Shown here: positions 18,265 to 35,456 of the stretch, piece after piece
Numbering within the stretch: position 1 is the first letter of the stretch
How the letters are laid out: each line of letters begins with the position of its first letter
Notes under the pieces: generated by a model
Databases searched by the model: none
What the model saw: the letters and a program-made list of their open reading frames with translations, nothing else
What the model was told of the DNA's origin: nothing
Origin: an uncultured Chloroflexia bacterium
Lineage (GTDB): Bacteria > Chloroflexota > UBA6077 > JACCZL01
Assembly: GCA_963765765.1 (NCBI GenBank)
Contig: CAVXYC010000001.1
Coordinates: 160,001 to 224,000 of the forward strand
Length of the DNA: 64,000 bases
Reading direction: 5' to 3'
Position numbers and translations under genes: made by a program

Positions 18265-19324
18265 ACGTATCGGCGCTGACCTTCTGGAGATGCTTGACAC
18301 CCGCGGCCATGAGCTCCAGTGAATCCTGCATGGCTCCCATCTCGGCATCGGCCAGCAGCGAGGAGGCGCTCACCTCCACATTCCCCACCAGACCCAGGCA
18401 GCTAGTGGCGCCATATGTACGCCCATCCAGCTCGCCCGCGCGCATGGCACACAGGACCGGATACGCATAGCCATCCGGGCGCGCGAGCTGTGACCCTCGC
18501 TCAGCCGCGCGAGCCGGGGCCTCTTCGAACGAAGATTGGGCTTGCACCTCACTTGGGTAGACGATGAACGTAATCCGATTTTCCGCACCCGGCCCATCAA
18601 CCTGGAGATCGATCTCGCCAACTGCCCCGTGTGCAAAGCCTCGGTCGCTGATGGGCGAGCGAATGATATTTCCGGAACTGAACCCCGTCGGCAGCTCATC
18701 TGAGAGGAATGGGGTGCGAAACAGTGCATCCGCGAGCGCGGGCGCGCCGTTGGATGCTCGAAATTTCTCGTACTTTGCGAGTGCCACGTTATTGAGATTG
18801 ATTGCCGATTGGATGGACGTCCCGGGTGCGGCTCCCTCGACAAGGGTGAACCAGATCAAATTGTCGCGTACACGCCCCGCGCCGAAGACTAACCGTTCCA
18901 GGCCATCGACATCGGCTTGACCTATGAGCTGGACGTCGGTGGCGTTGTTCTGACCCCCGGGGAAGATGCCAACGTTTTGATCGCCGATGATTTGATCGCG
19001 CACTTGACGAAAGTAGCCGACGGGAGGTATTGGCTGATCGATACGTATCACTTGCTGCCAGATCCGAACGGGGCCACCCGCAAGGTGCTCAGGAGATGGG
19101 TCTGTTCGCATAGCAATGGTGTAGCTCGGACCGACGTTCTCGATGAGTTGCTCTCGGGTCAGACCAGGCTCGATCTCAAATCCGTCCGGAACGTCGCCGA
19201 GGTCTAACGCGGTTTCCTGAGGAAGCATGCTTGGGACCTGCGCCTGAGCTGACCAGGGCATGAGCGCCGTAGAGAAGATGACAGCGAGGGCCACCATGAC
19301 GCTAATAGACGATGGCGAAGTCAT
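18254..19324 (-). CDS. Secreted hypothetical protein
   Basis: 356-aa ORF with signal peptide (AQA site) and ggag RBS. Confidence 0.65.
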   Translation of the reverse strand: MTSPSSISVMVALAVIFSTALMPWSAQAQVPSMLPQETALDLGDVPDGFEIEPGLTREQLIENVGPSYTIAMRTDPSPEHLAGGPVRIWQQVIRIDQPIPPVGYFRQVRDQIIGDQNVGIFPGGQNNATDVQLIGQADVDGLERLVFGAGRVRDNLIWFTLVEGAAPGTSIQSAINLNNVALAKYEKFRASNGAPALADALFRTPFLSDELPTGFSSGNIIRSPISDRGFAHGAVGEIDLQVDGPGAENRITFIVYPSEVQAQSSFEEAPARAAERGSQLARPDGYAYPVLCAMRAGELDGRTYGATSCLGLVGNVEVSASSLLADAEMGAMQDSLELMAAGVKHLQKVSADTSTR

Positions 19325-20239
19325 GAGGTGCTCCAGGACGCTGTTCGAGCTTTAGATTTGACGGTTGCCCAGTGTATCAGAACGCGCCCAGCGCCCTGAG
19401 CTGGCAAGCGTCCGAAACGCGCCAGAATCTCAGAGGGTTATCTCATGTGTGGGCGTCAATAGGGAGAAACCAGATCAAACGGCCTCGCAATAGGTCAAGC
19501 GACTCGCGGCGTGCCCGTGCTATGACTGATGATCACTGCACTGGTGGCGCTCAACCCATCCTCGTAACGGCGCCAGAGCTTCCAGGTTCGGCCTGCCCGA
19601 GTCCTACGAATCGACTCCCAGCGTCGATTCTCGACCACGGGAAGCATCCATAGACGCCTAGCCATTCCTTGTCGGCCAAATACCTCTCGACCTATCTATT
19701 GTTCGTCAATGACCTCTGTATCAAAATTCACATCACTAACACTTTATAGGGGACAGCAATACTTTTACTTCCTTCGCCGCCAATGTTTATTAGATCTTCT
19801 TGCCAGATATCTTTCCACTTGATTATTGAAGTCATTTTAGTCCTAGGTGGTGATTCGATAGTTAGTGCATCTGTTCGAGAAATCTCGGTAAGCCCTCCCG
19901 GAACAGGGGCGAAGTGTACGCGCTATCGTAATATTCGAAAAGTGGGTCGAAGGCGGACCGCCTATTGGAGGCGATCCCAACACGCTTGACTGCCGCGTCC
20001 TAAAAGATCGCACTCGCCGTGGTGCGCCCGCGCGGACGTCGGTTCTGGCGACAACGTTCGGTCTGACCTTGCTAGATATCCAGATACCTATGCCGTCTCT
20101 TAACGTTCGATTTTGGGCCTGCCACGCGATCACCCCGTCGCTGATCGGCACAAGGCGGAGCGCGTCTTATAAGCGTCTCGCAATTAACATCTCGGTGCCG
20201 ACCGCGTCTGATGAGTATTGAGACGGGCCAGCCTGACGT

Positions 20240-20267
20240 GTGAGCGCTAAGCCGGATTATCGAACGG
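20240..20267. other. Degenerate dif-like site A
   Basis: gtgagcgctaa-gccgga-ttatcgaacgg (TAA-N6-TTAT core). Confidence 0.4.
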
Positions 20268-20269
20268 GC

Positions 20270-22048
20270 AGTTCCTATAACCGGGGAGCCTGTTGAAAAA
20301 CGCGGGCATGGAGATCAAAAGCGCTGCCCTCGTCGGTGCGGCAGATCGTCTTCACGCGATGCTCAGACACGGGAAGGCGACCCTTGGAGTGGCTGGGGCG
20401 GTGGTCGGTGGGCGGACGGCCCCTCCGGCGCCCCACCCGGCCCTGGCCGCCGCCCCCAGCCAGCCCTTCGGAGCAGTCGCTTCAGGTTCTGGCCAGCCGC
20501 GACCACGAGCGCCTCGACGTGACCTGCCAGAGTCCGCGAAGCCGGAACGGCTCAGCCCGTGCCAGTCTTTGGCTTCGCCGAACAGCGGCTCAACCCAGAC
20601 CTTCCGCTTGGCCATGGCCTTCTCGTAGGCAGCCGTCTGGTGGTAGGCGTGCACACGCTCGAGGTACTCGGCGTACAAGGACCTCTGGACCTGGCGTCCC
20701 TGGCTGCCCTCGGTGCAGGCAGCCTTGAGCGGGCACGCCTGGCAGGTGGCGGCCTCAGCGCGGTAGACGACGACACCTTCGGTGTACTTGGCCGTCCGAC
20801 GTCGCAGCACCTGGCCTTCGGGGCAGCGGTACTCGTCGCGGTCCGAATCGTAGGTGAAGTGCGAGGCGCCATAGAACGGCGTCCGCTGGTCGAAGTCCGA
20901 CAGCGGAACGTAGGCGTAGATCTTCTGATCCTGGACCTCGACGATGTTCTCGACGGTCCCGTAGGTCGTGTCGCCGGTCACCTGGTCGGGGCGGATCCGC
21001 CAGCGGAAGCAGGCGCGCCAAAGCATGTCCAGGAATGGCTGGTTCTCCATCACGTCGGCCGGGGTCACCAGGACCTCGAGGATGATGCGGGCCTTGCCCC
21101 CATCAACGACGTAGTGGTCGTGGTACCCGAAGGAGAGTCCGCCTTTCTTGAGCGCCATCAGGGCGGCATCAGGATCGGTGGCGCTCGCCTCGAAATCAGA
21201 GCGGCGCCGATAGCCGTCTCGGATGATGGTCCGATCGGGTGCCCCGTTGCGGGCTAGCTAGTCGTGCCGCTCGCCATTGGTTTGAGCGAGCTGCTCTCGC
21301 TCGGCTTCCGTGATCGGGACCGGCAGGTCGATCGGCTGGCTCCCGTCTTCCTCCGGACTCGACTCATCGGGACCGTCACCGGTAAACAGCTCACCGAGGT
21401 GCGCCTCGACCGCAAAGCGCGGGGCGATCGAGTCAAGCGATGCATTACCCGGCACTTGCGTGGCATCGACGTACAGCTCTTTGCCCCAGACCAGCCCAGC
21501 CTCGCGGCACTGCTCGACGATCACTGCGAAGAAGCGGCGAAAGATGGCCAGGCCGTAGCGCTGTCGAATCCTGGAGAGGCTGGAGTGATCGGGCAGCGCC
21601 TCGTCCAAGGCGTACCCAAGGTACCAGCGGTGGGCGAGATGGAGGCTCGCGATCTCAATCAGGTGCCGCTCCGAGCGGATCCCCTCGAAGAACATGATCA
21701 ACTGGAGCTTGAAGAAGATGCTGGGGTCGATGCTCGGCCGCCCAGATCTCTTATACGTGCTACGGACCAGGTCGCGGACGAACGTCAGATCAAGCTCTGA
21801 CTCCAGAAGACGGTAGAAATGGTGAACGGGAACCAGCGCGTCCAGCGCTGCCAGCACCGGTTGGTCCACCCGGCGCACCTTGGCCGGGCCGAGCATGAAG
21901 AAAGAATCCAGTCTAGGGTCGGACGGCGGCCCCGACCGGCACGGGGCCGATCACGGCTCGCCACCCGGGCAATGATTTGCTTAGAACCGTACCAGCCGAC
22001 AGTGACGTGGCGTCGACTTTTTCAACAGGCTCGGGGGTTATCGGAACT
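20270..22048. other. dif-like site B, split by IS1182
   Basis: Left arm agttcctataa (20270-20280) and right arm ttatcggaact (22038-22048) are 10/11 inverted complements flanking the IS. Confidence 0.7.
20286..22032 (-). mobile_element. IS1182-family insertion sequence (transposase 20352-21896 disrupted)
   Basis: 15-bp perfect TIRs gagcctgttgaaaaa/tttttcaacaggctc; GRPSIDP, IRSER, PDHSSLSRIRQR, VEPLFGEAKDWHG motifs; internal TAG at 21258 and frameshifts. Confidence 0.92.
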
Positions 22049-22089
22049 TGGTTGACGTGCTTGGGAGTGCGGCGCATAGTACGGGTACC

Positions 22090-23088
22090 ATGGATCGGCC
22101 CACCCGTCGCGCATTCCTGCGAGGCACTCTGGCCGCGGCGGCGGCTGGCTTGCTGTCCGGCTGCGGGCTGGTAGCGCCACGGTCTCAGCAGGCAGTTCGG
22201 ACACCTCGCATCGGCTACCTGTGGTCCGGCGCACAGGAATGGGCCGACGCTTTCCGCGAGGGCCTGGCAGAGCTGGGTTACGTTGAGGGCAGCACGGTCA
22301 CCGTGGAGTGGCGACCGGCCGATGGACAGGTCGATCGCTTCCCCGGGCTGGCCGCCGAGTTCGTGAGCATGCCGGTCGACGTGATCGTGGCCTCCGGGAT
22401 CAGCCCTATCCGGGCCGCGATGCGCGCCACCAGCACCATCCCGATTGTGATGGTGCAGACGGCCGACCCGGTGGCGGACGGTTTTGTGGCCAGTCTGGCA
22501 CGGCCGGGAGGAAACATCACCGGACAGACCAGCATCGCCCGCGAGCTGATTGGCAAGCGGTTGGAAGTCCTGAGGCAGGCACTCCCGTCCGTGTCACGGG
22601 TGGGCGTTATCTGGAACCCCGACCCCGATATCAACCACGCCGGCCAGGTGCGGGATGCGGAGGCCACGGCCGGCGCACTGGGGATGACGCTGGTGTCGCT
22701 GGAGGCGCAGGAGACCGCCGCCATGGAGGGCGCATTCGAGCGAGCGGTGCATGAGCGGGTCGATGCGCTGACCCTGGTGGACAATGTCGTGCTGACGAGC
22801 AATCCGGCGCGTGTCGGCGGGCTGGCACTGGCGCATCGGTTGCCAATGACGTCGACCGGTCAATATGTGACGGCCGGCGGATTGATCGGCTACGGGCCAA
22901 ATCGTCCCGCCCAGGAGCGGCGCGCCGCCACCTACGTCGACAAGATCCTGAAGGGCGCCAATCCCGCGGAACTCCCCGTTGAGCGGCCGGAGAAATTTGA
23001 CCTGGTGATCAATCTCAAGACCGCGCAGGCGCTGGGTCTGACGATTCCACAGTCGGTCCTGGCCGAGGCGACCGAGATCATCCAGTAA
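22090..23088 (+). CDS. ABC transporter substrate-binding lipoprotein (ABC_sub_bind), orphan #1
   Basis: RRAFL signal plus lipobox LSGC, SLARPGGNITG, DKILKGANPAELPVERP, INLKTAQALGLTIPQSVL. Confidence 0.93.
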   Translation: MDRPTRRAFLRGTLAAAAAGLLSGCGLVAPRSQQAVRTPRIGYLWSGAQEWADAFREGLAELGYVEGSTVTVEWRPADGQVDRFPGLAAEFVSMPVDVIVASGISPIRAAMRATSTIPIVMVQTADPVADGFVASLARPGGNITGQTSIARELIGKRLEVLRQALPSVSRVGVIWNPDPDINHAGQVRDAEATAGALGMTLVSLEAQETAAMEGAFERAVHERVDALTLVDNVVLTSNPARVGGLALAHRLPMTSTGQYVTAGGLIGYGPNRPAQERRAATYVDKILKGANPAELPVERPEKFDLVINLKTAQALGLTIPQSVLAEATEIIQ

Positions 23089-23138
23089 CCCCACGAGTCT
23101 TTCTTCTACATCTCTTCGCTCATTCAGCTAGGTTGTCT

Positions 23139-23166
23139 CGGTCCGATAATGGGGGTTATCGGCACC
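23139..23166. other. dif-like site C
   Basis: cggtccgataa-tggggg-ttatcggcacc. Confidence 0.7.
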
Positions 23167-23355
23167 TGTTTGAAAAGGCGGAGCGTGTCTCAGTGGAGCA
23201 GGTTGTCTACCGAATGACGTGACCCTGTGGGCGACGACCGGTGGCTGAACCAGGGTGGGCCGCTACTCACCCGGTTGGTGTCTTGGCACATCGCCAATTG
23301 AGTGCTAGATTGCGCCGGAGTGCGCGATGACGCGCCCGAAACGAGAGGGAGCGCC

Positions 23356-24022
23356 ATGGACCCGTTGACCGTCCTCATGACCGCCCTTGGTGTGGTGCGA
23401 CCCTGCTCAAACCGGCGGCGGATAAAGCCGTCGCTGATGGCTACGACGCCCTCAAGACGCTCATCGTTCGCAAGTTCGGGAAGCGCGACCCGGCGCTCGA
23501 CTCGGTGCTCAGCCACCATGCGCAAGACCCGGAAGGGTGGAGACACCCGACCGAGCAACTGCTGGCTGGCGTGGGCGCTGATCGTGATCAGGAGGTGCTC
23601 GATCGCGCCACGGAGCTGATTCGGCGAGCCGAGACCACGAGGCCAGGTATCTCTCCGGGCTGATCGGACAGATCAACGCCCAGGGCGGGAGGGTCGTGGT
23701 GACCCACGCGGACCGAGGGGGCTATGCCGCCGGGCGCGACATCATCATCGGGGGACGGGTCGGGCAGGAACTCCTGCGGATACCGGGGTTGGTGAAAGCA
23801 CTGCTCGTCTTCGGCACGGTGCTGGCCATCATCGGCTTCGCGATCATCGGCGCCGGGGTGCTGTCGTGGATCGCGGCATTACCGAAGCTCGGGCCCAGTT
23901 CCCCGCCGCCCCAGTTCCCACCACCGGGGGTGATGACCGGGGCTCCGATCTTCTTCTCAGGGATCGTCCTGCTCGTCCTGACGGGACTGGCCTATGTCCT
24001 CACTCGACGGCCAGGCGACTGA
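23356..24022 (+). CDS. Bell/HeLo-like N-terminal domain plus amyloid-like motif and two TM helices (two frameshifts)
   Basis: Reconstructed MDPLTVLMTALG..AADKAVADGYDALKTLIVRKFG...GQINAQGGRVVV..GGYAAGRDIIIGG, followed by TMs; gaggga RBS. Confidence 0.55.
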
Positions 24023-24025
24023 CGG

Positions 24026-25158
24026 TTAGCCACCGAGTGCGGCTTCCATGCGGGTCGCGCTTTCTCGGCGAGCCTGTTCCAGAATGTGGCCGTAAATGTC
24101 CAGGGTCGTCTGACTGCGATCATGACCAAGCTGCTCCATAACCTCCCGCACGCTGGCGCCCATGGCGAACTGGAACGTGGCGCACGTGTGGCGCAGGTTG
24201 TGGAATGGAGTCCTCTGGATTCCCGCCTTCGCCAATGCGGCCTGAAAGCGGTGCGTCACGTTGGAGCGGTCCAATGGTGTGCCGGCCGCGGACGTGAAGA
24301 CGAGCCCAGCGGATTCCAGTGATCGGGTCGACCGGCCAAGAGATGGTCCTCCCTCTGCTTGGCTCGCTGCGCGTACAGGGCGTCCAACGCGGGTCCTGGC
24401 AGCGCCAGGTTTCGACGCGACCGGCGTGTTTTTGGTTCGACCAGTTGGTATTCCCCGCTGACCTTCTGAAGTTGCTTGCGTACGCGAAGCTCCTTCTGAT
24501 CCAGGTCCACATCTGCCCAACGAAGTCCTAGAACCTCCCCCTGGCGGAGTCCCAGGGCTAGCGCCACGGTGAACAACGCTTCGAGCGGATTCTGTTGGAT
24601 GGATTGCAGAAAAACTTTCGCTTCCTCGAGCGACAGAGGACGGCGCTCGACAGGCTCGTGCTTCGGCCCGTCGACAAGCGCAGCCACATTGCGTCCGACA
24701 ATTCCCCACTTCACCGCTCTACCGAGCGCGATACGTAGCACCGACAGAATGTATCGGACTGACGTGACGGACAGGCCCTCCGCCGACTTTGCCTTCAAGA
24801 GTCGCTGGATCGCCGACGGTTCCAGGCTTGAAAGGCGCGCACGACCAAGGCTCGGGCTGATGTGTAGCTTTACGGTGGCCGCGTAGCTCTCGTAGGTGCG
24901 TGGCCGGACGGACGGTTTCACATGGTTCTCAAGCCAGTCTGTGAGGAATTGATCGAGAGTCAGTCGCTCTGGTGGGACAGGCAATCCCTTCTGCAGGTCG
25001 CGTTTCAATGTATTGAGCCGAGAAATCAGATCGCGTTGCTCGCGGGCATAGAACGACTTCGTCCGACCGTTCAAAAGGGATACCCGAGCTTCCCAACGTC
25101 CGTCGGGGCGAAGGCGAATCATGCCCTCATGATTTGCGCGTCGCTTCATACCCGCCAT
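24026..25158 (-). CDS. Phage-type tyrosine recombinase/integrase (frameshift near 24320)
   Basis: RRANHEGMIRLRPDGRW arm domain, GLRQGEVLGLRW, FHNLRHT, QLGH, TTLDIYGH. Confidence 0.9.
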
Positions 25159-25225
25159 CTTTAGCTCCTGAGTGCTGTCCGAGATTTACTAGTTCGGTAC
25201 ACAGAACGGCATTTCATTGACCGCG

Positions 25226-25468
25226 TCATGTGACGTTTCCCCATTCCCGGCGCTCCAAACCTCTCACGCGGCAACCAGCAATGTCGAACGCGGGAGACGC
25301 GAGTCGGCCATTTACACATCCTCCTCCGTCAGCCTCGCGGCGAGTCTCCGCATACAGATACTTGCGTTGGCGCTTTCCGTCTTTCCAACCGAGGTCGAGG
25401 ACTGCGACCCAACGCCCATCTTGCCGCGGGTGAATCGAACCCTCACCGTGCCCTCGTCGACTAGTCAC
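25226..25468 (-). pseudogene. Truncated integrase N-terminus #2
   Basis: MTSRRGHGEGSIHPRQDGRWVAVLDLGWKDGKRQRKYLYAETRREA, then the similarity is lost. Confidence 0.75.
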
Positions 25469-25659
25469 TATCCCGCCTCCTCCGCTCGCTGCTCACGCTT
25501 GCGCCGCTGATACGCCCCCACGCGGCAGGCGTTCCCGCAGTAGATCTTCTTCGTAGTTCCCTCAATTGGAACCCCGCAAATGACGCACGCGCTCGTCACC
25601 CTTCGACGGTATGCTGCGAGGGCACGAGCTGCCTGCGCAGCCCCATCATCTTTGCCCAA
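25468..25659 (-). CDS. Small Zn-finger protein coupled to integrase fragment
   Basis: CVICG...YCGNACRVGAYQRRKR; ggagg RBS. Confidence 0.7.
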   Translation of the reverse strand: MGKDDGAAQAARALAAYRRRVTSACVICGVPIEGTTKKIYCGNACRVGAYQRRKREQRAEEAG

Positions 25660-25898
25660 ATGAGTACCTCCTGAAACATTATAAGCTAATAATGTCGTTC
25701 GACTGCCCTGCCAGAGATGTGCGGCCTAGCGATCTCGAAAGGTGGGTTTGGGACGGTCCGGCGATCTTGACCATGTGGACTGGCAAGGTCGAATACAGGC
25801 TGATCGACCTATTCGCGGCAAACAGCGAGCCGATTTGCTCCCGCAATTCACTTGAGGATGTAATAACGACCGCGTTGTCAGACGATGGCTACATAACA

Positions 25899-25977
25899 CC
25901 GTCCACAGCGTCCAGAGCGTCCAGGCCACAACCCCTGCCGTTGAAATACTGGACGCTATGGACGGTGTGGACGCTCT
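25899..25977. repeat. Inverted arrays of 9-bp GTCCA-containing repeats
   Basis: gtccacagc-gtccagagc-gtccagg ... ctggacgct-atggacggt-gtggacgct. Confidence 0.65.
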
Positions 25978-26105
25978 GCGGGGCCCTGTTTGGAGGACGA
26001 CTCGGAATTGTCCGCGATGGGGCTGCCCGTTCGCTGGTCATGATCGCGGCGACCATCGGGCTCTCTCACTCGTCCTCCATGGCGTACAAACTGCAACTGC
26101 GAGCG

Positions 26106-26156
26106 TCACGAGTCATCCTTGGAGATCGAGCCCTCCCCGTGGCCGCGGCGGGTCAT
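26106..26156 (-). pseudogene. Truncated integrase N-terminus #3
   Basis: Manual translation MTRRGHGEGSISKDDS*. Confidence 0.6.
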
Positions 26157-26157
26157 G

Positions 26158-26427
26158 CTAGTCCCGAACCCACAAATAGAATCCGGTGCGCACGGGCATT
26201 CGCTCCACCGTCATCCCGGCCGCTCGAAGCTGATCAGCCAGCGTTGTCAGGACGTCGGCCTTCGATGAGTCAGAGGTCTCTTCCGCTGGGAACGAGCCCT
26301 GTGGTGGTGGACGAAGTCGAATCGTCCATCCCCCTCCACCATTCGCCTCCAGATCGTAAAGACCGGCGTTCCCGCCAGCCTTCATTACAGCATTGACCTG
26401 TGCGCGTAGATCGGATGAAGTAGTCAT
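26158..26427 (-). CDS. Hypothetical protein
   Basis: 89-aa ORF abutting integrase relic #3. Confidence 0.5.
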   Translation of the reverse strand: MTTSSDLRAQVNAVMKAGGNAGLYDLEANGGGGWTIRLRPPPQGSFPAEETSDSSKADVLTTLADQLRAAGMTVERMPVRTGFYLWVRD

Positions 26428-26519
26428 GCTCGAGCCCCGCTTTCAGTCTGAGAAGATGGAGTCCTGGATCACGCGTGAGTGCGATTGCTCTAAAACCGGC
26501 GAGACGAAAGACTCTCACC

Positions 26520-26933
26520 TCAGCCGTCGATGAATTCATCCACGGCCGTAAATCTCTCCCAATTCTCAGTTCTTGCAAGATGAATCAGCGTGGAGGTGAT
26601 GGCTTCGACCAGCTTTGGCCCTGGTTCCAGGACATCCAGGTAGACGGGCTCATCGTGCATTTTGTGGATGAAGATCTCGCCGCTTTGCGGATACACGGCG
26701 ATCGTGAGCGATCGGGGCATGCCGTCCCCTTGCCACACGACGTGCCAGCCTCGAGAGCTTTCGTGAGTATCTGGCCTCATGCTCATAAGTGCCAGATGAT
26801 CGTTCGATAGAGCCACGGCCTCCTCGAGGATCTGCTGGATCGCAAGAATCAGATCGTCGGCTTTCTCCTGTCGCTCGTCTGCCTTTTCGCGAGAATTTCT
26901 GATTTCTGCTTTGAGGTCATCAGTCCAGGGCAT
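26520..26933 (-). CDS. Hypothetical protein
   Basis: 137-aa ORF with protein-like composition and N-terminal coiled coil. Confidence 0.6.
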   Translation of the reverse strand: MPWTDDLKAEIRNSREKADERQEKADDLILAIQQILEEAVALSNDHLALMSMRPDTHESSRGWHVVWQGDGMPRSLTIAVYPQSGEIFIHKMHDEPVYLDVLEPGPKLVEAITSTLIHLARTENWERFTAVDEFIDG

Positions 26934-27019
26934 TTGTCACACCACCTAACCCGTCTATCACCAGCAGCGGCCGCCGAGATGAGCGAAGGGAAGGTCGCTC
27001 GTAGGTCGGGTTCATGCGA

Positions 27020-27886
27020 TTAGCCGGATGACGATGATCGCCCTGCTAACTGCCGGCCGCGCTCAAGCGCGGCGTAGCTTCTCGGAGCGGCCGCGACGAT
27101 CATTCTGAAGCCCTCTTCGAGGCGTTGCTCGACGTCATTGACATCGGCGATGGTGCAGCATGGGACGCGGGCATCCTGGCAGGCGTGAAGAATCGCCTGA
27201 ATGGCCGCTTCTACCTCTGGATGTTTGCCCTGACCGGCGTGGCCCAGGTCGACCGATAGATCGCCGGAGCCTGCCCAGATGGCGCTCAAGCCTCTGACCT
27301 CCTTCAAGATTGCTGGTAGATTCTTAACGCCTTCCTTGTCCTCAACGATGGCCATGCAGAAGATCTCGCCTTGCAGACCGTACGGCCACAGCTCGGCGGC
27401 GGCGTAATACTCTTGGATATTGAGGCCCCAGTAACGCGAGGCGTGGCGCGGAAACCAGCCTCTCTGGCCATGATCGGCCTCGCCGGGTCTCGGATAGCGC
27501 ACCGCGGCCACCAGCGCCCGGGCTTGCTCGACAGTCGATAGATGCGGCTGGACAACCCCGTAGACGCCGCAGTCCAGCGTCTGCTTGATAACCCACTGGT
27601 TCATCTCACCCGCGTTCGGCGGCACCCGCACGAGTGGTACGACAGCCGGCGCAATCGAACCGCTCTTCGCAATACGCGCCCGATTCAACAGATGCTGGAG
27701 CGTGGACCTCAGATTGGGGAAATCGAAATCGAGGTGCTCCATGTCAAAGATGACGAAGTCGTTGTCCGACTCCGCTATGGCCATCGCATCATCCAGCGCG
27801 CCATTGGGCGCGGTCAGACCGAACGCGGGCTTGCCCGACTCCAGCAGGCCAATCAATGAGTTGAGCCGAGCCATGGTCAACTCCAA
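27020..27886 (-). CDS. HpcH/HpaI aldolase family protein
   Basis: FDMEH, PLVRVP, KQTLDCG, IVEDKEGVKNL, GSGDLS. Confidence 0.9.
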   Translation of the reverse strand: MELTMARLNSLIGLLESGKPAFGLTAPNGALDDAMAIAESDNDFVIFDMEHLDFDFPNLRSTLQHLLNRARIAKSGSIAPAVVPLVRVPPNAGEMNQWVIKQTLDCGVYGVVQPHLSTVEQARALVAAVRYPRPGEADHGQRGWFPRHASRYWGLNIQEYYAAAELWPYGLQGEIFCMAIVEDKEGVKNLPAILKEVRGLSAIWAGSGDLSVDLGHAGQGKHPEVEAAIQAILHACQDARVPCCTIADVNDVEQRLEEGFRMIVAAAPRSYAALERGRQLAGRSSSSG

Positions 27887-27978
27887 ATGCGGTGGGTTGC
27901 TGCGCGTAGAGTAGCACCGATCAGGTGACCTGCGAACGACGAGAGCGCCGGCGTCTCCCGATCTTGACCGCGGTCGTC

Positions 27979-29183
27979 TTACCGGAAGAAGAATCGCTCG
28001 AACATCTCCACATACTCGTTGTTGCGTTGAATCTGATCATCGGTACGACGCTGCGGATTGATCTCGCCAATGCTTGGGTAGCCGGCGGGCGGAGGGAGAT
28101 AGGCCAGGGCGGCGTGTGACTGAATGTGCTGCACCACTCCGCGCTGCCCATCCTCTGAGACAAGCCAGCTCACCCATAGCTTGGCAGCGTCCTCACCGGC
28201 GCGTCCTTTAACACGCCTACGTTTAATTCCACAGCGGTTGAGCCGCCATCACGCATCCACTCCACTTTTACGGGAGCGATCGCCTGCATATCGAGCAGCT
28301 CGCTGGTGATCCCGATCGGGAAATACATCGCGTATTCACCGCGAGCTATCTGCTGGGACACCGTGCCGCCTACCTCGCGAGACCAGGTCGGCTCCTGGTC
28401 TTTGAATTTGTCCAAGTACTCCTGGCCGAGCTGGTGGTAATTGATCGTGAAGTACTCCAGGCCGGTCCCACCCATCCGTGGATCGCTCACCAGCATCTTC
28501 CCCTTGCCCTTCCAGAACGGGTCCAACACGTCCTGACGCGTGCGCGGGATCTTGTTCTCAGGGACGAGGCTCGTGTTCAAAATCATCCCGAATACGTTGG
28601 TGCTATAGGGCCACCGGGTCTTGCCCGCGGACAAGGGCACGGGCGGCAGATCAGCAACGTTTGCTGGCCCTTCCCATTCCAGTAGATGACCGGCCTGCTC
28701 GATTGTCGTCATGGAGGTTGCGCCTGCGCTGGCGACGCTCGCGATGCGACGGCTGGCGGTGCCTTCCGCCGCCAGGCGCTGGATCATCTCCGGTGTGCGG
28801 AGCTGCACGCGCTCCACCTCGATGCCAGGGAAGGCCTTCTGAAACTGCTCGATGAGCGGATCAGCCTCCACCCCGAACGTCGCGTAATGGGTCACCTTTG
28901 TCTGACCCGACGTGAGCGCCTTCTGATAGTACTCAGCGAGTTTGGCAGCGACCACCGCGGCACTCGATGAGGTCGGGGCGGACGACTTGGGCTCGGCGGC
29001 TATGGCCGCGGAGGGGGCCGCTGTCACTGCGGGTGGGGCCGCTGTCGCCGCCGGCTGCGCCGTAGACGGCGCGATTGTCGGTGGCGGTGCAGCCAGCGGG
29101 GCGCACGCGGCGATGGTCAACGCGAGGATGATTCCGATGACAGGAAGCGAGCTGCGGCGCATGGAGAAAGGCATGGCAGCCAC
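27979..29183 (-). CDS. Extracellular solute-binding lipoprotein (Fe/thiamine-type; frameshift near 28190)
   Basis: Lipobox IAAC, Ala/Pro linker, DVLDPFWKG, WLVSEDGQ in the continuation ORF. Confidence 0.82.
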
Positions 29184-29626
29184 CCTTCACCCAGTGGACG
29201 TGTGGCGCGTCCTTCACATCGAAAAGCGCCGCGGCTCAGGGCCATCTCCCGAGCCCAACGCGTGCCCCACACGTAGCACCAGATACGCGACCTAGCGTAG
29301 TGCAGCCATGCGCACCTGTAAAGCTGTCCTAGGAAGTGTAAGTGTTCAGACTTGAGGGGATGAGTTTGTGACACGGCTGTGAGGTGCGGGCGAGTCACGC
29401 GGCCGTCACAGCCCGGTAGCGTGCGGCCATGATGCGCACGTGATCGACTTCACCGCTCATCCAGCAATTACGAGGCGAGGTGTGCGTAAGCAGGCCCTTC
29501 TGCTGGCGCGCGCCCCTGCAACAAGCCGTTTCGCCCAGCCGCGGTATCCGCAGCGGCCCGCCGGACCACCGAGACCTTCAAGCGTGCTGTGGCCGATCGC
29601 GACGTAGCGCTCGAGCCGCCTCATGG

Positions 29627-30499
29627 CTACTCGCAGAATCGTGGGACGCGGAAGACGAGCTCCTCGTCACCGATTTCGCGGCACAGGGTGTGGAGCTCGC
29701 TTCGCCGAGCACCTCGCCATTCGAGGTCCTCGAGGCTCTCGGCGAGCGGGACGTCGCGCCGGAGCGTCGCGAGCGTCTTATAGAGCGCCGCGTCGTCACG
29801 TCGCTCTCTCAAACTGGCAGCCAGCGCCGCGCCGCCTCGGACATTCACGTCCCATCGAGTCGGGTCGTCGGGGATGTCTTCGATCCGACCAAACCGACCG
29901 AGCACCGCGGACGCTGCTTTCTCGCCCCACCGCGGGATGCCGGGAAAGCCATCGGCCGAGTCGCCGACGAGAGCGAGCCAGTCCGGGATCGAACCCGGCG
30001 GCACACCGAACTTCTCGTTCACCTGCTTTTCGTCCATTAGGAGACGACGCATGCGATCGAAACGGACCACGCGCTGGTCGACGACGCACTGAGCAAGATC
30101 CTTGTCAGGGGTGCAGATCAGAATCTGTTCCACCTCGGGAATCGACGAGAAGCGCGCCGCGGCGGTGGCGAGAGCGTCGTCCGCTTCGAACTCGATCATT
30201 GACCACGTAGTGATTCCGAGTGCGCGCGACGCGCGTTCGGCGAGAGGAAATTGCGAGAGCAAGTCGTCCGGGATGCCCGCGCCGGTCTTGTACCCATCAA
30301 ACAGGTCGTTGCGGAACGACTCGATGACGTGGTCGAACGCGATGGCGACGTGACTGACTCCGTCCTCGCGCAGGAGCGAGAGCAGGGACCGAAGAATGCC
30401 GCGCGTCGCTCCTATTTCTCGATCGCCAACCTGGGCCTTGGGAGCTCCGAAGAAGGACCGAAACAACTCGTACGTGCCATCGACGAGATGGACCTTCAT
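29627..30499 (-). CDS. 5'-3' exonuclease / flap endonuclease
   Basis: HLVDGTYELFR, EADD, TPDKDLAQ, LVGDSADGFPGIP. Confidence 0.92.
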   Translation of the reverse strand: MKVHLVDGTYELFRSFFGAPKAQVGDREIGATRGILRSLLSLLREDGVSHVAIAFDHVIESFRNDLFDGYKTGAGIPDDLLSQFPLAERASRALGITTWSMIEFEADDALATAAARFSSIPEVEQILICTPDKDLAQCVVDQRVVRFDRMRRLLMDEKQVNEKFGVPPGSIPDWLALVGDSADGFPGIPRWGEKAASAVLGRFGRIEDIPDDPTRWDVNVRGGAALAASLRERRDDAALYKTLATLRRDVPLAESLEDLEWRGARRSELHTLCREIGDEELVFRVPRFCE

Positions 30500-31210
30500 C
30501 TGGTTGACTCGGTCAGCGTCTTCATGCCGAGATGAGCGTCCGCGATGCGCAACTCGTGCATCTGGTGCGCTTTCGGGGAAGGCGCGGCCACGAGATCCTG
30601 GTGCGTCCGGTGATCGTCGGCGGTGACTTGAATGCGGAATGATCTCGGCATACTGCGAGCATCCACCCCTCCGTCACTGGGTCACACCGATCGTTCTCGC
30701 CCGTACCAATGCAACCTTCCAGACCTCGTGTCACTGACTACCAGGCTGCGGATCAACGCTGGAGATGTTCGAGCCACTGCTCCCGCAGGATAACTGCGAC
30801 CCGTTTAGCAGTCGCCCCAATCCGACTGATTGAACGTGTAACTCACGGCCACAGCATAGACAGTGACGACGCCCATCTTAAACGGAATCCCTGCCCTCGG
30901 CTTATCACCGGGCAATCTCCGCATGCGGTCTCGCCAAAAGATGAACCAAGCGAACGGACGCCTTCAGGCCGCTCGGAAGGTCAGTGTGAAACGGAAAGGA
31001 ATGGAGGCGTTCGGCAACTCATTGTTATTGTTTTCCTAATAGTTATGCCGATGCATATTGCCCGGTGATAAACCGGCGGCACTCACTGAACTTCCATTCC
31101 GGGTAACCGTTTCGCTGTCATCACGCCGGGCCGACCCTCGTTCTCAGCTGGCGACCGAGCTTGGGATCAGACGGTGCGTCATTGTCAAGTCTGCAGGGGG
31201 GACCCAAATT

Positions 31211-31315
31211 GGTTCCGATAACCGTGTTCAAACTAACTCATCTGGGAACGTGACAATAGGAAACACGCTCGAGTGACCGTGGCAGCTGGTACTGGGAATC
31301 GGGGTTATCGGACCC
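31211..31315. other. dif-like site D, arms separated by about 80 bp
   Basis: ggttccgataa-cc at 31211 and gggg-ttatcggaccc at 31301-31315. Confidence 0.55.
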
Positions 31316-31453
31316 TGTTTCAAAGCGCGGAGCGTGCGCCGGGAGGGGCGTGAGAGATCCTTTCTGGATCGGCTCCGTTGCCTGGCCGATCGCCACCGCG
31401 GTGGGGGACTGGTTCGATTGCGGGCTCAAGCCGCCAGTTCTATACTGGCGGCC

Positions 31454-32462
31454 ATGGACCCGTGGAGTCGTCGAGACTTCCTGCGCGCTAGCCTTGGCCT
31501 CACCGGCCTCGGCCTGCTCGCCGGCTGCGCGGCCTTGCCGGCGCCAGGTCAAGGGACGGCGAGGATGCCGCGCATCGGCTTCCTGCTCGTCGGCACCCGC
31601 GAAGGTCGGGCGGACCTGATCGAGGACTTCCTCCGGGGGCTGCGCGAGCACGGCTACGAGGATGGAAGGAACATCGGCATTGAATACCGCTTCTCGGATA
31701 CCGTCGACAATCGGCTGTCGGAGCTCGCGACCGAGCTGGTCGACCTGCAGCTCGATCTCATCCTGACGATAGGCACCCCGGCGAGCCGCGCCGCCAAGGA
31801 GGCCACCGGCACCATCCCCATCCTTGCCGCCTCGGTCTCTGACCCGGTCGGGAGCGGCCTGGTCGCCAGTCTCGCGCGGCCGGGCGGGAACGTTACCAGT
31901 TTGAGCAACTCGGGCAATGACACCGACATGAAGCGCATGGAGCGGCTCAAGGAGGTGGTCCCCGCGGCCTCCCGCGTCGCCGTCCTCGGGGGCCAAAGCA
32001 CTCCAGCGACAGGGCGGCGGATGGCAAACTTCGAGGCGGCGGCCCAGGTCCTGGGGCAGCAGGTGCGGCGGGTGCCGGCGCGGACGGCCGACGACTTCGC
32101 CGGCGCCTTCCGCGGCGGTCGGCTGGGGTGCCGACGCGGTGCTGGTGCCATCGGACGGCCTGACCGTCAGTTACCCGACTCGGGTCGTCGAGCTGGCGAC
32201 GCAGCATCGGCTGCCGACCTTCTACGAACATCGGGAGTTCACCGATGTGGGCGGGCTTGCGACCTACGGGCCCAACTACGCCGAGATCTACTGGCGCGCC
32301 GCCACCTACGTGGACAGGATCCTCAAAGGGGCCACGCCGGCCGATCTCCCCGTCGAAGAGCCCACGACCTTCGACTTCGTGATCAACCTCAAGGCCGCCC
32401 AGGGGCTCGGGCTGATCATCCCGCAGTCGGTCCTGGCCCAGGCGACCGAGCTCATCCAGTAG
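31454..32462 (+). CDS. ABC_sub_bind lipoprotein, orphan #2 (frameshift near 32110)
   Basis: RRDFL plus LAGC, SLARPGGNVT, DRILKGATPADLPVEEP, INLKAAQGLG. Confidence 0.9.
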
Positions 32463-32463
32463 C

Positions 32464-32543
32464 GAGTGAGCTCGCTCGAGCAATCTCCCTCTTTCGCTGA
32501 GCCCCTAGGTAGGCACGTTCCGATAATGGGGGTTATCGGAACG
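32464..32543. repeat. 54-bp accessory repeat plus perfect dif-like site E
   Basis: gagtgagctcgctcgagcaatctccctctttcgctgagcccctaggtaggcacg followed by cgttccgataa-tggggg-ttatcggaacg (32516-32543). Confidence 0.85.
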
Positions 32544-32559
32544 TCGACCGCCCCGGTGA

Positions 32560-33585
32560 CTACTGGATGACTTCGGTGGCCTGCGTCAGGATGGACTGCG
32601 GAATGGTCAGCCCCAGGGCGTGCGCTGTTTTGAGATTGATGGCGAAGTCGAACTCTGTGGGCCGCTCCATCGGCAGGTCGCCGGGGCGGGCACCTCGCAG
32701 GATCTTGTCCACGTACGGTGCTGCGCTCCGGTAGATCGCGGCTCGACTCGAGCCATATGCCAGCAAGCCTCCCGCCCGAGCGAACTCCGGAAATTCCGTG
32801 ATCGACGGCAGCCGATACCGGAGTGCTAACTCGGCGATGCGTCCCCACGCAGAGTCCCACTGGGTGGCGGCGAGAAGCTTGACGGCATCAGCGCCGGCTG
32901 CGGATACGGCCACGAACGCGTCGTCGAGGCCGCTGATGTTCGGTATGTGGACGACGTGAAGGTGTACCCCGAGGCCGGGCGCGGCCTCCTGGAGCGCCCG
33001 CAGGCGGATCTCTGATCCCGAGGTCGCGTCGGCGCTGCCTTCGCGGAGCACGGCTACACGGGAGGCGTGCGGAACCGCTTCCTTCAGTAGTTGAAGCTGC
33101 TTGCCTTCGAATTGCGACCCGCTGATGCCGGCCGTCCCGGTGATGTTCCCGCCGGGCCGCGCGATGTTGTCGACGAGCCCCATCTCGATTGCCTCCGTGC
33201 TGAACAGGATCGTCACGAGCGGGACCGTGGCGGTCGCTTGCTTGGCGGCGAGGCTGGCCGGCGGCGAGCCCACTACAATCAGCTCGACCTTCCGCTCGAC
33301 GAGCTCGGTCGCCAGCGCCCCGTACCGTTGGGAGTCTCCCCCGGCCCAGCGGGACTCCACGGCGAGGTTCCGGCCCTCGACCCAGCCCAGCTCCCGCAGT
33401 CCATCCCAGAACGCGTCCCAACGCCCGCCAGGCGCGCCTCCGAGGACCCCGATCAGGCGCACCCGCTCGGACGTTGGGGCCTGGGGAGGGAGCAGCCCGC
33501 AGCCGGCCAACAGACCGAGGCCGGCCACGGACAAGCCACCCATCAGGAAGCGGCGACGGGTGCTCGATGGTCCGAGTGGCGTCAT
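32560..33585 (-). CDS. ABC_sub_bind lipoprotein, orphan #3
   Basis: RRRFL plus LAGC, NIARPGGNITG, DKILRGARPGDLPMERP, INLKTAHALGLTIPQSIL. Confidence 0.93.
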   Translation of the reverse strand: MTPLGPSSTRRRFLMGGLSVAGLGLLAGCGLLPPQAPTSERVRLIGVLGGAPGGRWDAFWDGLRELGWVEGRNLAVESRWAGGDSQRYGALATELVERKVELIVVGSPPASLAAKQATATVPLVTILFSTEAIEMGLVDNIARPGGNITGTAGISGSQFEGKQLQLLKEAVPHASRVAVLREGSADATSGSEIRLRALQEAAPGLGVHLHVVHIPNISGLDDAFVAVSAAGADAVKLLAATQWDSAWGRIAELALRYRLPSITEFPEFARAGGLLAYGSSRAAIYRSAAPYVDKILRGARPGDLPMERPTEFDFAINLKTAHALGLTIPQSILTQATEVIQ

Positions 33586-33623
33586 GATGGCGCTAGTGTA
33601 CGCCCGCGTGGTGCCACAACGCA

Positions 33624-33705
33624 GAGTGAGCTCGCTCGAGCAATCTCCCCTCTTTCGCTGAGCCCCTAGGCAGGCACGGGGCCGATAATGGCGATTATCG
33701 GAGTG
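33624..33705. repeat. Second copy of accessory repeat plus dif-like site F
   Basis: Near-identical to 32464-32517, followed by ggggccgataa-tggcga-ttatcggagtg (33678-33705). Confidence 0.85.
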
Positions 33706-33933
33706 ATCGGGTTCCACTGTCGGGCGCGGCGTGCCTCCCGCGCTCACGCTATGATCTCACGTTGTGGCTTCCGCGGAATCCTCGTTTGGGAATTCTGCTT
33801 GGCTGTGCGGTACGGTTCGCCGAAGACGGCGACATCGATTTCCATACGAACGAACCGTTGCACTACATTCACTATCGTTGAAGCGTACAAGTCGTGACGG
33901 TGATAACCGTCTGGGTTCGGAGAGATTGCTTCC

Positions 33934-34695
33934 ATGAGGACCGTGCTCATCATTGGCATTGGTGCAGGCGATCCCGACTACATGACGGTGCAGGCCATTA
34001 AAGCGCTCAATCGAGTTGACGTGTTCTTCGTCATCGACAAAGGGCCACGCAAAGACGAGCTGGCCCGTCTACGGACCACTATCTGCGATCGCTACATTGA
34101 GCATCGCTCCTATCGGTTCGTTGAGATCCAGGACCCAGAGCGCGACCGATCAGGAAACCATTACCGAGCGGCCGTTGAGGCGTGGCGTCAGGAGCGAATG
34201 GAGAAATATCAGTTGGCCTTGCTCAGCGAGCTCGACCCTGAGGCTACCGGGGGATTTCTCGTCTGGGGCGATCCAACAATTTATGACGGCACGCTGGGCA
34301 TGATCCATGAGATTGCCGCGCGTGGTGCGGTTGATCTGAACTACGAGGTGATCCCGGGAATCTCCAGTGTTCAGGCACTGGCTGCACAGCACAAGGTTCC
34401 TTTGAATCGGGTGGGCGAGCCCATTCACATCACGACCGGTAGGCGCGTATCCGAAGGGCTCACGGCAGACCAGGACAATCTGGTTGTGATGCTCGATGGC
34501 GATCAGGCCTTTCGTCAGGTCGCCGACGAAGGTTTTGATATCTATTGGGGCGCGTATGTGGGTACGGAGGATGAGATTCTCGTATCCGGCCATCTTGAAG
34601 ATGTGAAGGATGAGCTGGAAACGATCCGTGCTGACGCCCGCGAAAAGCACGGCTGGATTATGGACACCTATATCCTTCGGCGGCGGGAGTCTTGA
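33934..34695 (+). CDS. cobF: Precorrin-6A synthase (deacetylating)
   Basis: IGIGAGDPDYMTVQAIKAL, FLVWGDP, YWGAYVGT, GWIMDTYILRR. Confidence 0.92.
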   Translation: MRTVLIIGIGAGDPDYMTVQAIKALNRVDVFFVIDKGPRKDELARLRTTICDRYIEHRSYRFVEIQDPERDRSGNHYRAAVEAWRQERMEKYQLALLSELDPEATGGFLVWGDPTIYDGTLGMIHEIAARGAVDLNYEVIPGISSVQALAAQHKVPLNRVGEPIHITTGRRVSEGLTADQDNLVVMLDGDQAFRQVADEGFDIYWGAYVGTEDEILVSGHLEDVKDELETIRADAREKHGWIMDTYILRRRES

Positions 34696-35456
34696 GCCTC
34701 GTCACGGCGAGCGGACCGGTGCTCGTGCTTGGGGGGACCTCGGAAGCTCGCGAAGTTGCTGATGCGCTGGACCAAGCCGGTCAACCAGTTGTGTCCTCAA
34801 TGGCTGGCCGCATAGCCTCGCCGAGCTTTCCCGCTGGTGAGGTGCGGGTCGGCGGATTTGGCGGCGCCGAGTCACTGGCGGAGTGGCTTGAGGTCAACAG
34901 GTGCGCCGCGGTGATCGATGCGACGCACCCATTCGCCGTGAGGATCTCAAAGTCCGCCGTCTCGGCCTGCGGCGCCGCTCAGGTGCCGCTCGTGCGATTG
35001 AATCGGCCCGGGTGGGTCCAGCAACCCGAAGACCGTTGGTACTGGGTCGATGATATCGAGTCGGCCGCCGTTCTGGCGCCGCGGCTCGGGAATCGAATCC
35101 TGCTGACCATCGGACGTCAGTACCTGAATGCCTTCGCACATGTATCAGACGCGTGGTTCCTGGTCCGCTCCGTGGACCCGCCAACGTTGACCCTACCGAT
35201 GGACCATGAGCTGCTGTTGAGTCGCGGACCATTCACGCTTGATGCTGAGATGGAGCTGATCCAGAGACATCGGATCGACCTCATTGTGACGAGAGATAGC
35301 GGCGGAGCTGCCACCGAGCCCAAGCTTCTTGCTGCACGGGCACGCGGTCTCCCGGTTGTTGTCGTGCGCCGACCGCCTTGTCCTGATGTATTCACCGTGC
35401 CGGGAGCCCCCGAGGCCCTGGCGTGGCTGCAAGAAGTGGCGGGTCGGAGCTGGTGA
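34692..35456 (+). CDS. cobK: Precorrin-6A/cobalt-precorrin-6A reductase
   Basis: VLGGTSEA, RVGGFGG, IDATHPFA, RGPF, DSGG. Confidence 0.92.
   Translation: MSLVTASGPVLVLGGTSEAREVADALDQAGQPVVSSMAGRIASPSFPAGEVRVGGFGGAESLAEWLEVNRCAAVIDATHPFAVRISKSAVSACGAAQVPLVRLNRPGWVQQPEDRWYWVDDIESAAVLAPRLGNRILLTIGRQYLNAFAHVSDAWFLVRSVDPPTLTLPMDHELLLSRGPFTLDAEMELIQRHRIDLIVTRDSGGAATEPKLLAARARGLPVVVVRRPPCPDVFTVPGAPEALAWLQEVAGRSW

Follow-up and report, generated by a model that had tools for sequence, protein, structure and literature searches.

What places three orphan substrate-binding protein (SBP) genes of the PF04392 family, each of them enclosed by copies of the same short palindrome, into one locus of an uncultured Chloroflexia bacterium? 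The locus lies in a window (the whole stretch of DNA that was analysed, 64,000 nucleotides) of contig CAVXYC010000001.1, which corresponds to G000:C1:160001-224000; G000 denotes the 6,493,169-base assembly GCA_963765765.1 (33 contigs, 92% complete, 6.85% estimated contamination). Window positions count from its first letter, and positions on contigs of G000 are written with the contig handle. Here, we describe the palindromes as members of a family of 28-bp sites and report on their placement, their orientation, the breakpoints of sequence similarity at them and one strain polymorphism. We consider it somewhat better than an even bet (a probability of roughly 0.55) that the sites are crossover points of a recombinase and that they bound mobile modules in the manner of Xer-type cassettes.

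When the entire assembly was scanned for the site, with few substitutions tolerated and C runs of 4-6 nt allowed, 37 places were found, which are spread over 11 contigs and many of which lie deep inside long ones. From the 29 sites whose spacer measures 6 nt we derived the consensus CGTTCCGATAA-CCCCCA-TTATCGGAACG. It has the core geometry of dif-type sites, with two 11-bp arms, a 6-bp central region and an inner ATAA...TTAT palindrome. Both arms carry the same XerC-like sequence, and the distinct XerC and XerD arms of dif sites were not found. The preliminary description of this DNA had proposed an 11-6-11 dif-like geometry with a TAA-N6-TTAT-type core and symmetric arms, and the 29-site consensus agrees with it in both respects. 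Its suggestion that the arm resembles the XerC half of actinobacterial dif was also sound: the arm TCCGATAA is the XerC-side arm of the dif site that the cited account suggests for Frankia alni (PMC3025954), and the dif sequences of Myxococcales in the table of a second source have it on the XerC side as well (PMC2731167), as far as these entries go. The sites are conserved in sequence and form perfect 10-11-bp palindromes. When we searched for the arms only and left the spacer unconstrained, 24 places were obtained in G000 and all of them had a CCCCCA-like spacer. Thus, the central region is conserved and each site has a direction. In the window, CCGATAA-N6-TTATCGG occurs three times (23143, 32520, 33682), as compared with a mean of 0.17 in shuffled sequences, and none of 100 shuffles reached three; together with the reading of the sequence, this test bore out the full sites that had been proposed at 23139, 32516 (perfect) and 33678.

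Two other identities of the sites were considered. An intrinsic-terminator scan gave 12 terminator-like matches, none of which is a site, and site E in the window has no T tract, so a terminator reading was rejected. Four patterns of the canonical asymmetric dif gave no match in G000, and ATAA-N6-TTATG..AA was not found in the 92%-complete assembly. For comparisons with relatives we used a set of 40 genomes, nine of them from the same family; some counts run over 41 genomes, including the unpublished G006, which carries no weight in any of our conclusions. A candidate asymmetric site, TTCGATAA-N6-TTAGCGTWAC, is present at C30:14268 and at C647:2565 of G001, a member of the same genus, and one further match to it in G000 is one of the palindromic sites. 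It occurs in just 3 of the 41 genomes (0-2 mismatches) and is therefore not a conserved dif.

The placement of the sites is far from random. Twenty-one of the 37 lie within 300 bp of a PF04392-like coding sequence, whereas random placement (5000 draws, same distance) gave a mean of 0.37 and a maximum of 4; the enrichment of the motif beside PF04392 genes that the preliminary description had envisaged is thus seen genome-wide. Neighbouring sites, defined as two sites within 10 kb, have the same orientation in 19 of 19 pairs, and the enclosed genes run either way. In the arrays neighbouring sites are spaced by 0.65-4.5 kb; examples are a run of six sites at C23:452366-457691 and a run of four at C7:35903-45097. 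The cargo between sites is not confined to SBP genes: we found a PFK gene, a SnoaL-like gene, a cluster of a low-molecular-weight phosphatase, a MIP channel and a UPF0060 gene, and cydAB. Since the cargo varies between modules and since genes run in both directions between co-oriented sites (the second and third SBP genes of the window, SBP2 and SBP3, converge), the arrangement is not a by-product of tandem duplication. The sites are found at the 3' ends of genes, between convergent genes and also on 5' sides.

More direct evidence came from comparison of the flanks. When the 600 nt to the left and to the right of each of the 37 sites were compared all against all and matches of at least 200 nt were kept, 76 flank matches were obtained. 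In 30 of them the similarity stops or starts no more than 20 nt from the site centre, and does so in both partners. Another 39 are matches of coding sequence and end short of the site, and six are of other kinds, three of these being overlaps of neighbouring comparison windows. Only one match (C20:551911 with C30:95085) passes through the site for more than 40 nt on both sides. One family of right flanks, which we call R1, is present at six sites and is joined there to six different left flanks. By inspection, each arm variant seems to be tied to a flank of its own, R1 in the case of TTATCGGC and a short repeat termed the L-block in that of G/TCCGATAA. A shared right flank on different left flanks and arm variants that track flanks are the pattern expected from crossovers inside the spacer. 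The clearest case involves two complete modules: C1:192519-193702, which holds SBP3, can be aligned with C7:35903-37177 over 1201 nt at 86.5% identity, beginning at the very first base of the 5' site, and outside the sites the flanking DNA of the two is unrelated. Thus, as in pdif modules (the Xer-dependent modules of Acinetobacter), the same module occurs in different contexts with its boundaries at the sites, both in this pair and in the 30 of 76 matches.

A comparison between strains points in the same direction. The exact site was found on two independent metagenome contigs, where it stands in other contexts. Metagenome contig L137, which is about 92% identical to G000, carries in this order a glyoxalase gene, a perfect site, a GNAT gene, a composite-like element and a Rieske/DUF2231 gene. 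In G000, the outer two of these genes (glyoxalase and Rieske) lie 42 kb apart, from C27:45864 to C27:88419, and the 42-kb segment between them starts at a site (C27:45975) and ends with a site (C27:88180) and a composite element. The left breakpoint between L137 and G000 is the right edge of the site.

For this pattern we infer the following course of events, in which recombinase binding, strand exchange and circular intermediates are the conjectural steps. The 28-bp element would serve as a dif-like core recombination site with two identical XerC-type arms and an asymmetric CCCCCA centre, and a tyrosine recombinase of the Xer family would bind both arms. Two directly oriented sites would pair and strands would be exchanged at the edges of the central region, so that the DNA between them would leave as a circle with one site. 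Such a circle could be inserted again, with its polarity kept, into any other site, and repeated rounds would yield co-oriented arrays of small modules and would spread the family of orphan PF04392 modules to many loci.

Which enzyme might carry out these reactions? G000 contains 21 matches to the tyrosine recombinase family PF00589, and three of the genes have a site no more than 1.5 kb away, namely one for a Xer-like protein (C30:~93950-94860) and two for phage-type integrases, at C20:548.3-549.5k and in the window. The Xer-like gene on C30 is about 225 bp away from a perfect site, and a site plus a composite element (two arms 16 nt apart around TTGACA) stand upstream of it. This site-plus-composite architecture recurs at no fewer than seven other loci, is represented in the window by 31211-31315 and often precedes about 200 nt of conserved non-coding sequence. 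Our candidate enzymes are this accessory Xer-like gene and the housekeeping Xer-like gene at C29:~41.3-42.0k. The integrase at 24026-25158, which had been put forward for recombination assays in the preliminary description, is of the phage type, is read in two frames and is not clearly involved. Two side observations concern the neighbourhood of these genes. Between C20:548300 and 553000 the gene of a phage-type integrase is found together with a terminase small-subunit gene and with an SBP module that has a site at either end. The 134 nt that follow site C20:551911 have their match in the DNA upstream of the C30 gene.

Outside G000, the palindrome TTCCGATAA-N6-TTATCGGAA was present in at least 120 other genome records from many unrelated phyla, as compared with about 9 expected by chance according to our own arithmetic. 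Among the matches listed, 34 of 120 palindrome loci had within 1.2 kb an open reading frame (ORF) for a tyrosine recombinase belonging to one connected Xer-like family, and at 19 of these 34 loci the site lay no more than 250 bp upstream of the predicted start or overlapped it. The best NCBIfam matches of these recombinases were XerC, XerD and XerA models, all below the respective cut-offs. Examples from the loci L017-L136 are L052:638-1983, L076:4827-6042 and L098:1933-2931. In other genomes the palindrome is often extended to 13 bp per arm, ctacTTCCGATAA...TTATCGGAAgtag. At locus L050, two identical copies of the arm palindrome with the spacer GGCGCC stand at 100 and 3101, 3 kb from each other, in direct orientation and with partly similar flanks; this pair may represent a site-bounded module in a different lineage, and the three ORFs scanned there gave no Pfam match. 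On viral contigs, 24 loci carried the arm palindrome, and since a related recombinase ORF was present on just three fetched loci, these contigs add little.

How does this system compare with those already described? Acinetobacter pdif modules, to which the preliminary description had likened the locus, share with it the 28-bp 11-6-11 sites with an ATAA-N6-TTAT core (PMC6449649, PMC12907356, PMC10132070), the small modules of one or a few genes that are reused in new contexts, and an insertion sequence (IS) at a fixed distance of 5 nt from an arm. The likeness therefore stands for geometry, module size and reuse but not for orientation: in the accounts cited, Acinetobacter modules are flanked by inverted sites (C/D and D/C), whereas the flanking sites of G000 are direct (19 of 19). 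As judged from the same accounts, the arms differ as well (C/C in G000, C/D in Acinetobacter); the G000 loci stand on long, chromosome-like contigs and their cargo is of the housekeeping type (binding proteins, PFK, cydAB) instead of resistance genes; and the IS of G000 is IS5/IS1182-like and not a member of the IS1202 family. The latter family comprises IS that hunt dif sites, and its members are characterised in the cited report by a TnsB-like transposase, TGT...ACA ends and insertion 5 bp outside the XerC arm (PMC10132070). In contrast, the IS of the window encodes DUF772 and DDE_Tnp_1_6 domains, ends in GAGCC...GGCTC and sits inside the spacer, so that only the 5-nt distance to the arm is alike. 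With XerS/difSL the system shares a Xer-like gene linked to a dif-like site (the C30 gene here, and 19 of the 34 other genomes listed, with the site at most 250 bp upstream); according to the description consulted, difSL is a single site per chromosome that serves dimer resolution, as opposed to 37 module-bounding sites in G000 (PMC2731167).

Integrons offer the closest parallel in layout. Like them, G000 has co-oriented arrays whose units mostly hold one gene; a given unit turns up in more than one array, a site stands directly upstream of a recombinase gene (on C30), and IS and other elements target the sites. The sites themselves differ, being short, conserved and perfect palindromes, whereas attC sites are variable and imperfect and are recognised as folded single strands; moreover, the arrays of G000 are scattered over many loci instead of being anchored to one platform, and a search of G000 for an IntI-type integrase (TIGR02249) gave a best score of 49.5 bits against a cut-off of 265. 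The system is therefore integron-like in layout yet fails the tests that define integrons. A bolder version of the cassette interpretation holds that we are dealing with self-contained, integron-like gene capture that runs on a Xer-type recombinase instead of IntI, with an accessory Xer-like gene that has its own core site and a composite promoter/operator upstream, dozens of symmetric sites, and single genes that hop between chromosomal arrays. We regard this as a tentative proposal that is rather less probable than its negation. Since the arm sequence stands beside Xer-like genes in at least 34 genomes of many phyla, such systems could be widespread and so far unrecognised.

Several observations weigh against the view that the sites bound mobile cassettes. 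The right breakpoint between L137 and G000 lies 60-140 nt from the nearest site-like element and outside any spacer, and the inner 33 kb of the 42-kb segment hold ordinary metabolic and transport genes; the difference may therefore reflect a large rearrangement or deletion and not cassette traffic. Of the precise gain and loss between related genomes that the preliminary description had anticipated, one strain replacement polymorphism with its left breakpoint at a site stands, whereas the right breakpoint does not fall into a spacer. The relatives do not tie the C30 recombinase to the sites either. G001 (650 contigs) has an 87%-identical homologue with a different upstream region and has no site, at up to two mismatches for the entire site or up to one for the arms only; G029 has one site and, on another contig, a 69% homologue. 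The attempt to link gene and sites through relatives thus failed, since one genome has the gene without sites and the other has both but not side by side. Repeated extra blocks in the flanks (the R-block, the L-block and a module of about 290 nt) are superfluous for a simple cassette model, and lone half-sites are not enriched in G000 (38 seen, about 49.5 expected). Spacers of 5 and 7 nt exist and vary solely in the length of the C run, which makes assembly indels likely and the fine detail uncertain. Finally, genes near sites (PF04392 genes, integrases, the transposase, MIP and PhoX genes) often read in two or three frames, as at 24026-25158 and 31334-32500 of the window and at C17:124180-131762; these breaks look like homopolymer indel errors in the assembly, with real pseudogenes as an alternative.

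The strongest competitor, to which we give about one chance in four, is that the palindromes resemble repetitive extragenic palindromic (REP) elements: selfish or structural hairpins that evolve rapidly, attract IS and act as hotspots of illegitimate or short-homology recombination, with no dedicated cassette recombinase. Like REP/REPIN-RAYT systems, the palindromes are short, extragenic, species-specific and present in many copies, and they were not found in the closest relatives of G000. As single-stranded DNA the perfect 28-bp site forms a stable hairpin (-12.6 kcal/mol, z = -5.4), copies are frequent at gene 3' ends and between convergent genes, extra repeated blocks adjoin the palindrome, and the insertion of an IS into the loop has precedents in some REP families. 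However, none of the 19 neighbouring pairs is inverted, and REPIN-like doublets are thus lacking. A RAYT gene was also not seen near the sites, since the three weak matches to the Y1_Tnp family PF01797 in G000 (C20:197901, C18:113651, C23:350604) are all far from any of them. Moreover, the sequence has exactly the 11-6-11 geometry of dif sites and an arm of the published XerC type, and the palindrome recurs beside Xer-like genes in 34 of 120 unrelated genomes among the matches listed. Strong enrichment beside one gene family and strict local co-orientation are unusual for REPs.

The IS in the window raises a different suspicion, namely that the sites are leftovers of an IS5/IS1182-like element, either as tips of terminal inverted repeats, as excision footprints or as miniature inverted-repeat transposable elements. 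Such an origin seems improbable to us. The element is a 1,747-bp IS on the minus strand at 20286-22032, with transposase ORFs at 21258-21896 and 20352-21158, Pfam matches to DUF772 and DDE_Tnp_1_6, and the exact inverted termini GAGCCTGTTGAAAA. On its left stands the left half of site B (20270-20285, arm AGTTCCTATAA plus five spacer nucleotides), on its right the right half (22033-22048, GGGGG plus arm TTATCGGAACT), and the two half-sites give rise to a 31-nt inverted repeat (87% complementary). A second, solo IS end at C10:138654 likewise has the same half-site arm 5 nt away, and the L-blocks beside 6-7 sites resemble the IS terminus. The position of the half-sites places the IS within the spacer of a site, at a distance of 5 nt from either arm, and with GGG on both sides the IS-split site that the preliminary description had placed at 20270/22038 is confirmed. 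The GGG duplication around the GAGCC...GGCTC termini fits insertion into a pre-existing site. In addition, G000 has a single copy of the IS as opposed to 37 sites, the arms of full sites face inward 6 nt apart, which differs from abutted or excised IS ends, and this IS has no part in the association with Xer-like recombinases in other phyla.

The composite element, which spans a TTGACA box, brings regulation into play: the sites might be operators only, bound by a Xer-like protein that controls its own gene or by a transcription factor of PF04392 genes, with no exchange of DNA. Palindromic arms suit a dimeric DNA-binding protein, and in 19 of 34 other genomes among the matches listed a site closely precedes the start of the recombinase gene. 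An operator would, however, hardly be expected at 3' ends, between convergent genes and on 5' sides alike, its spacer would not have to be conserved and asymmetric, and it would explain neither why similarity between loci breaks at the site nor the strain polymorphism of L137; we consider this reading very unlikely. Least probable of all, to a degree that makes it nearly negligible, are mis-joins at repeats in a metagenome-assembled genome. They would be in keeping with an estimated contamination of 6.85%, with the many frameshifted genes and with a site that is 229 bp away from the end of its contig. Against them, 28 bp is little repeated sequence to provoke a mis-join, the sites are on 11 contigs and many of them deep inside long ones, and the site recurs in other contexts on two independent metagenome contigs.

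With the interpretation as recombinase crossover points retained, the array in the window can be read from left to right as site A, the IS-interrupted site B, SBP1, site C, an 8-kb segment with the phage-type integrase, the composite element and site D, SBP2, site E, SBP3 and site F. Each of the three PF04392 genes stands between consecutive sites and they run in both orientations, and there was no permease or ATPase among the 20 ORFs scanned between 17263 and 35456; on both points the initial reading proved right. Site A (20240-20267), the degenerate site that had been suspected at 20240, is a hybrid or degenerate 11-6-11 element, GTGAGCGCTAA-GCCGGA-TTATCGAACGG, at the left edge of the array. 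Its sole homologue in G000 is at C27:88350, with similar flanks and at the edge of another variable region. The two copies belong to a segment of about 70 nt (20160-20267 of the window and C27:88330-88400) that carries a second type of 11-6-11 palindrome, GCGCTAA-GCCGGA-TTAGCG; the segment marks the edges of two variable regions in opposite orientations, and the right arm of the window copy resembles the main family.

Behind site B, a promoter-like TTGACG-17-CATAGT (22052-22080, promoter scan) precedes SBP1 (22099-23088, plus strand), an intact PF04392 gene (Pfam 153.5 bits) with a Tat-like RRAFL leader. Site C (23139-23166, minus strand) is a full site with one mismatch to the 22-nt core and is abutted by an L-block of about 25 nt (23164-23188), which by eye resembles the IS terminus and which also occurs beside the sites C23:453585, C27:47295, C27:48704 and C7:45097. 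The integrase of the 8-kb segment (24026-25158, minus strand; Pfam PF14659 and PF00589) is a phage-type tyrosine recombinase in two overlapping frames with one frameshift or assembly indel, and it is homologous to the integrase at C20:548.3-549.5k. The same segment contains a near-perfect 20-nt inverted repeat at 25896-25968 (95% complementary, arms 33 nt apart), for which the Rfam match was at chance level.

The right part of this segment differs from its first description, in which 31211 and 31301 were taken as the halves of one split site. Instead, we found a full site D with a decayed left arm (31288-31315, minus strand, GGTACTGGGAA-TCGGGG-TTATCGGACCC), to which an L-block is adjacent at 31313-31336, and a separate composite element at 31211-31250 (minus strand), which consists of GGTTCCGATAA, 16 nt and TCATCTGGGAACG. 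Both belong to a module of about 290 nt (30960-31315), termed type 2, in which a site is followed by the composite, by a TTGACA box and by a conserved stretch with the hairpin CCGGTTTATCACCGG at its end; its non-coding part (30960-31210, minus strand) comprises the TTGACA box and then ...ACGGTTACCCGGAATGGAAG...CCGGTTTATCACCGGGCAATATGCATCGG. Further copies are present at C1:3102-3361, C23:468615-469078 (two in tandem), C6:22403-22677, C7:1-250 and C7:45085-45353, and no Rfam family matched the module. Downstream of the copies lie different genes (5'-3' exonuclease, PhoX, unknown ORFs), which does not point to a shared regulon, and the idea of a regulatory leader was dropped.

SBP2 (31454-32462, plus strand) belongs to PF04392, and its frame breaks after about residue 254 of the ORF that starts at 31334. 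The Pfam match covers only model positions 17-173 of 293 in one frame, which indicates that the gene is frameshifted or mis-assembled, and two further in-frame pieces lie at C1:191616-192095 and C1:192130-192453. From the SBP2 stop codon to site E extends a first copy of the R-block (32464-32515, about 52 nt). Site E (32516-32543, minus strand) is the perfect 28-bp site CGTTCCGATAATGGGGGTTATCGGAACG and lies between the convergent genes SBP2 and SBP3. SBP3 (32560-33585, minus strand; Pfam 126 bits) is intact, with its start taken at MTPLGPSSTRRRFL. A second R-block (33624-33677; repeat families D7 with 97% and D8 with 100%) stands on its 5' side, and site F (33678-33705, minus strand), a full site with three mismatches to the 22-nt core, forms the right edge of the array. 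The stretches with SBP genes (20000-24000 and 31000-34000) have a G+C content of 0.64-0.67, as compared with 0.54-0.62 in the surroundings. An Rfam scan of 19000-35000 returned just three sub-threshold chance matches, none of them at a site or module.

How far does the system reach beyond this genome? When the spacer was included in the search, none of the nine same-family genomes and one of the 40 relatives had a site, and with the arms only it was found in two of the 40. Tandem PF04392 arrays in the relatives G009 and G001 had no comparable palindromes, and the exact 22-mer gave no record in a collection of species-representative genomes. In the five nearest genomes the flanking genes are at most 68% identical at the nucleotide level, and the contigs of these genomes end close to the edges of the array. 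The preliminary description had considered that such a system could help to explain the large expansions of PF04392 genes in soil bacteria. This idea is not supported, because the relatives lack the sites and because several PF04392 arrays of G000 itself are free of them: the system is specific to the lineage of G000 and is not a general cause of PF04392 expansions.

In the sources cited, Xer-dependent modules are described almost solely from Acinetobacter, mostly on plasmids and as carriers of resistance (PMC6449649, PMC12907356). If the sites of G000 are indeed crossover points of mobile modules, the Xer-module principle would be at work on the chromosome of an uncultured environmental bacterium. 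Symmetric, directly oriented sites in integron-like arrays would then be new, as would ordinary metabolic and transport genes as the cargo of Xer modules. The link between the palindrome and Xer-like genes across phyla provides a testable pair of recombinase and site, and for the bacterium itself the modules would offer a concrete route by which orphan substrate-binding genes could spread within one genome.

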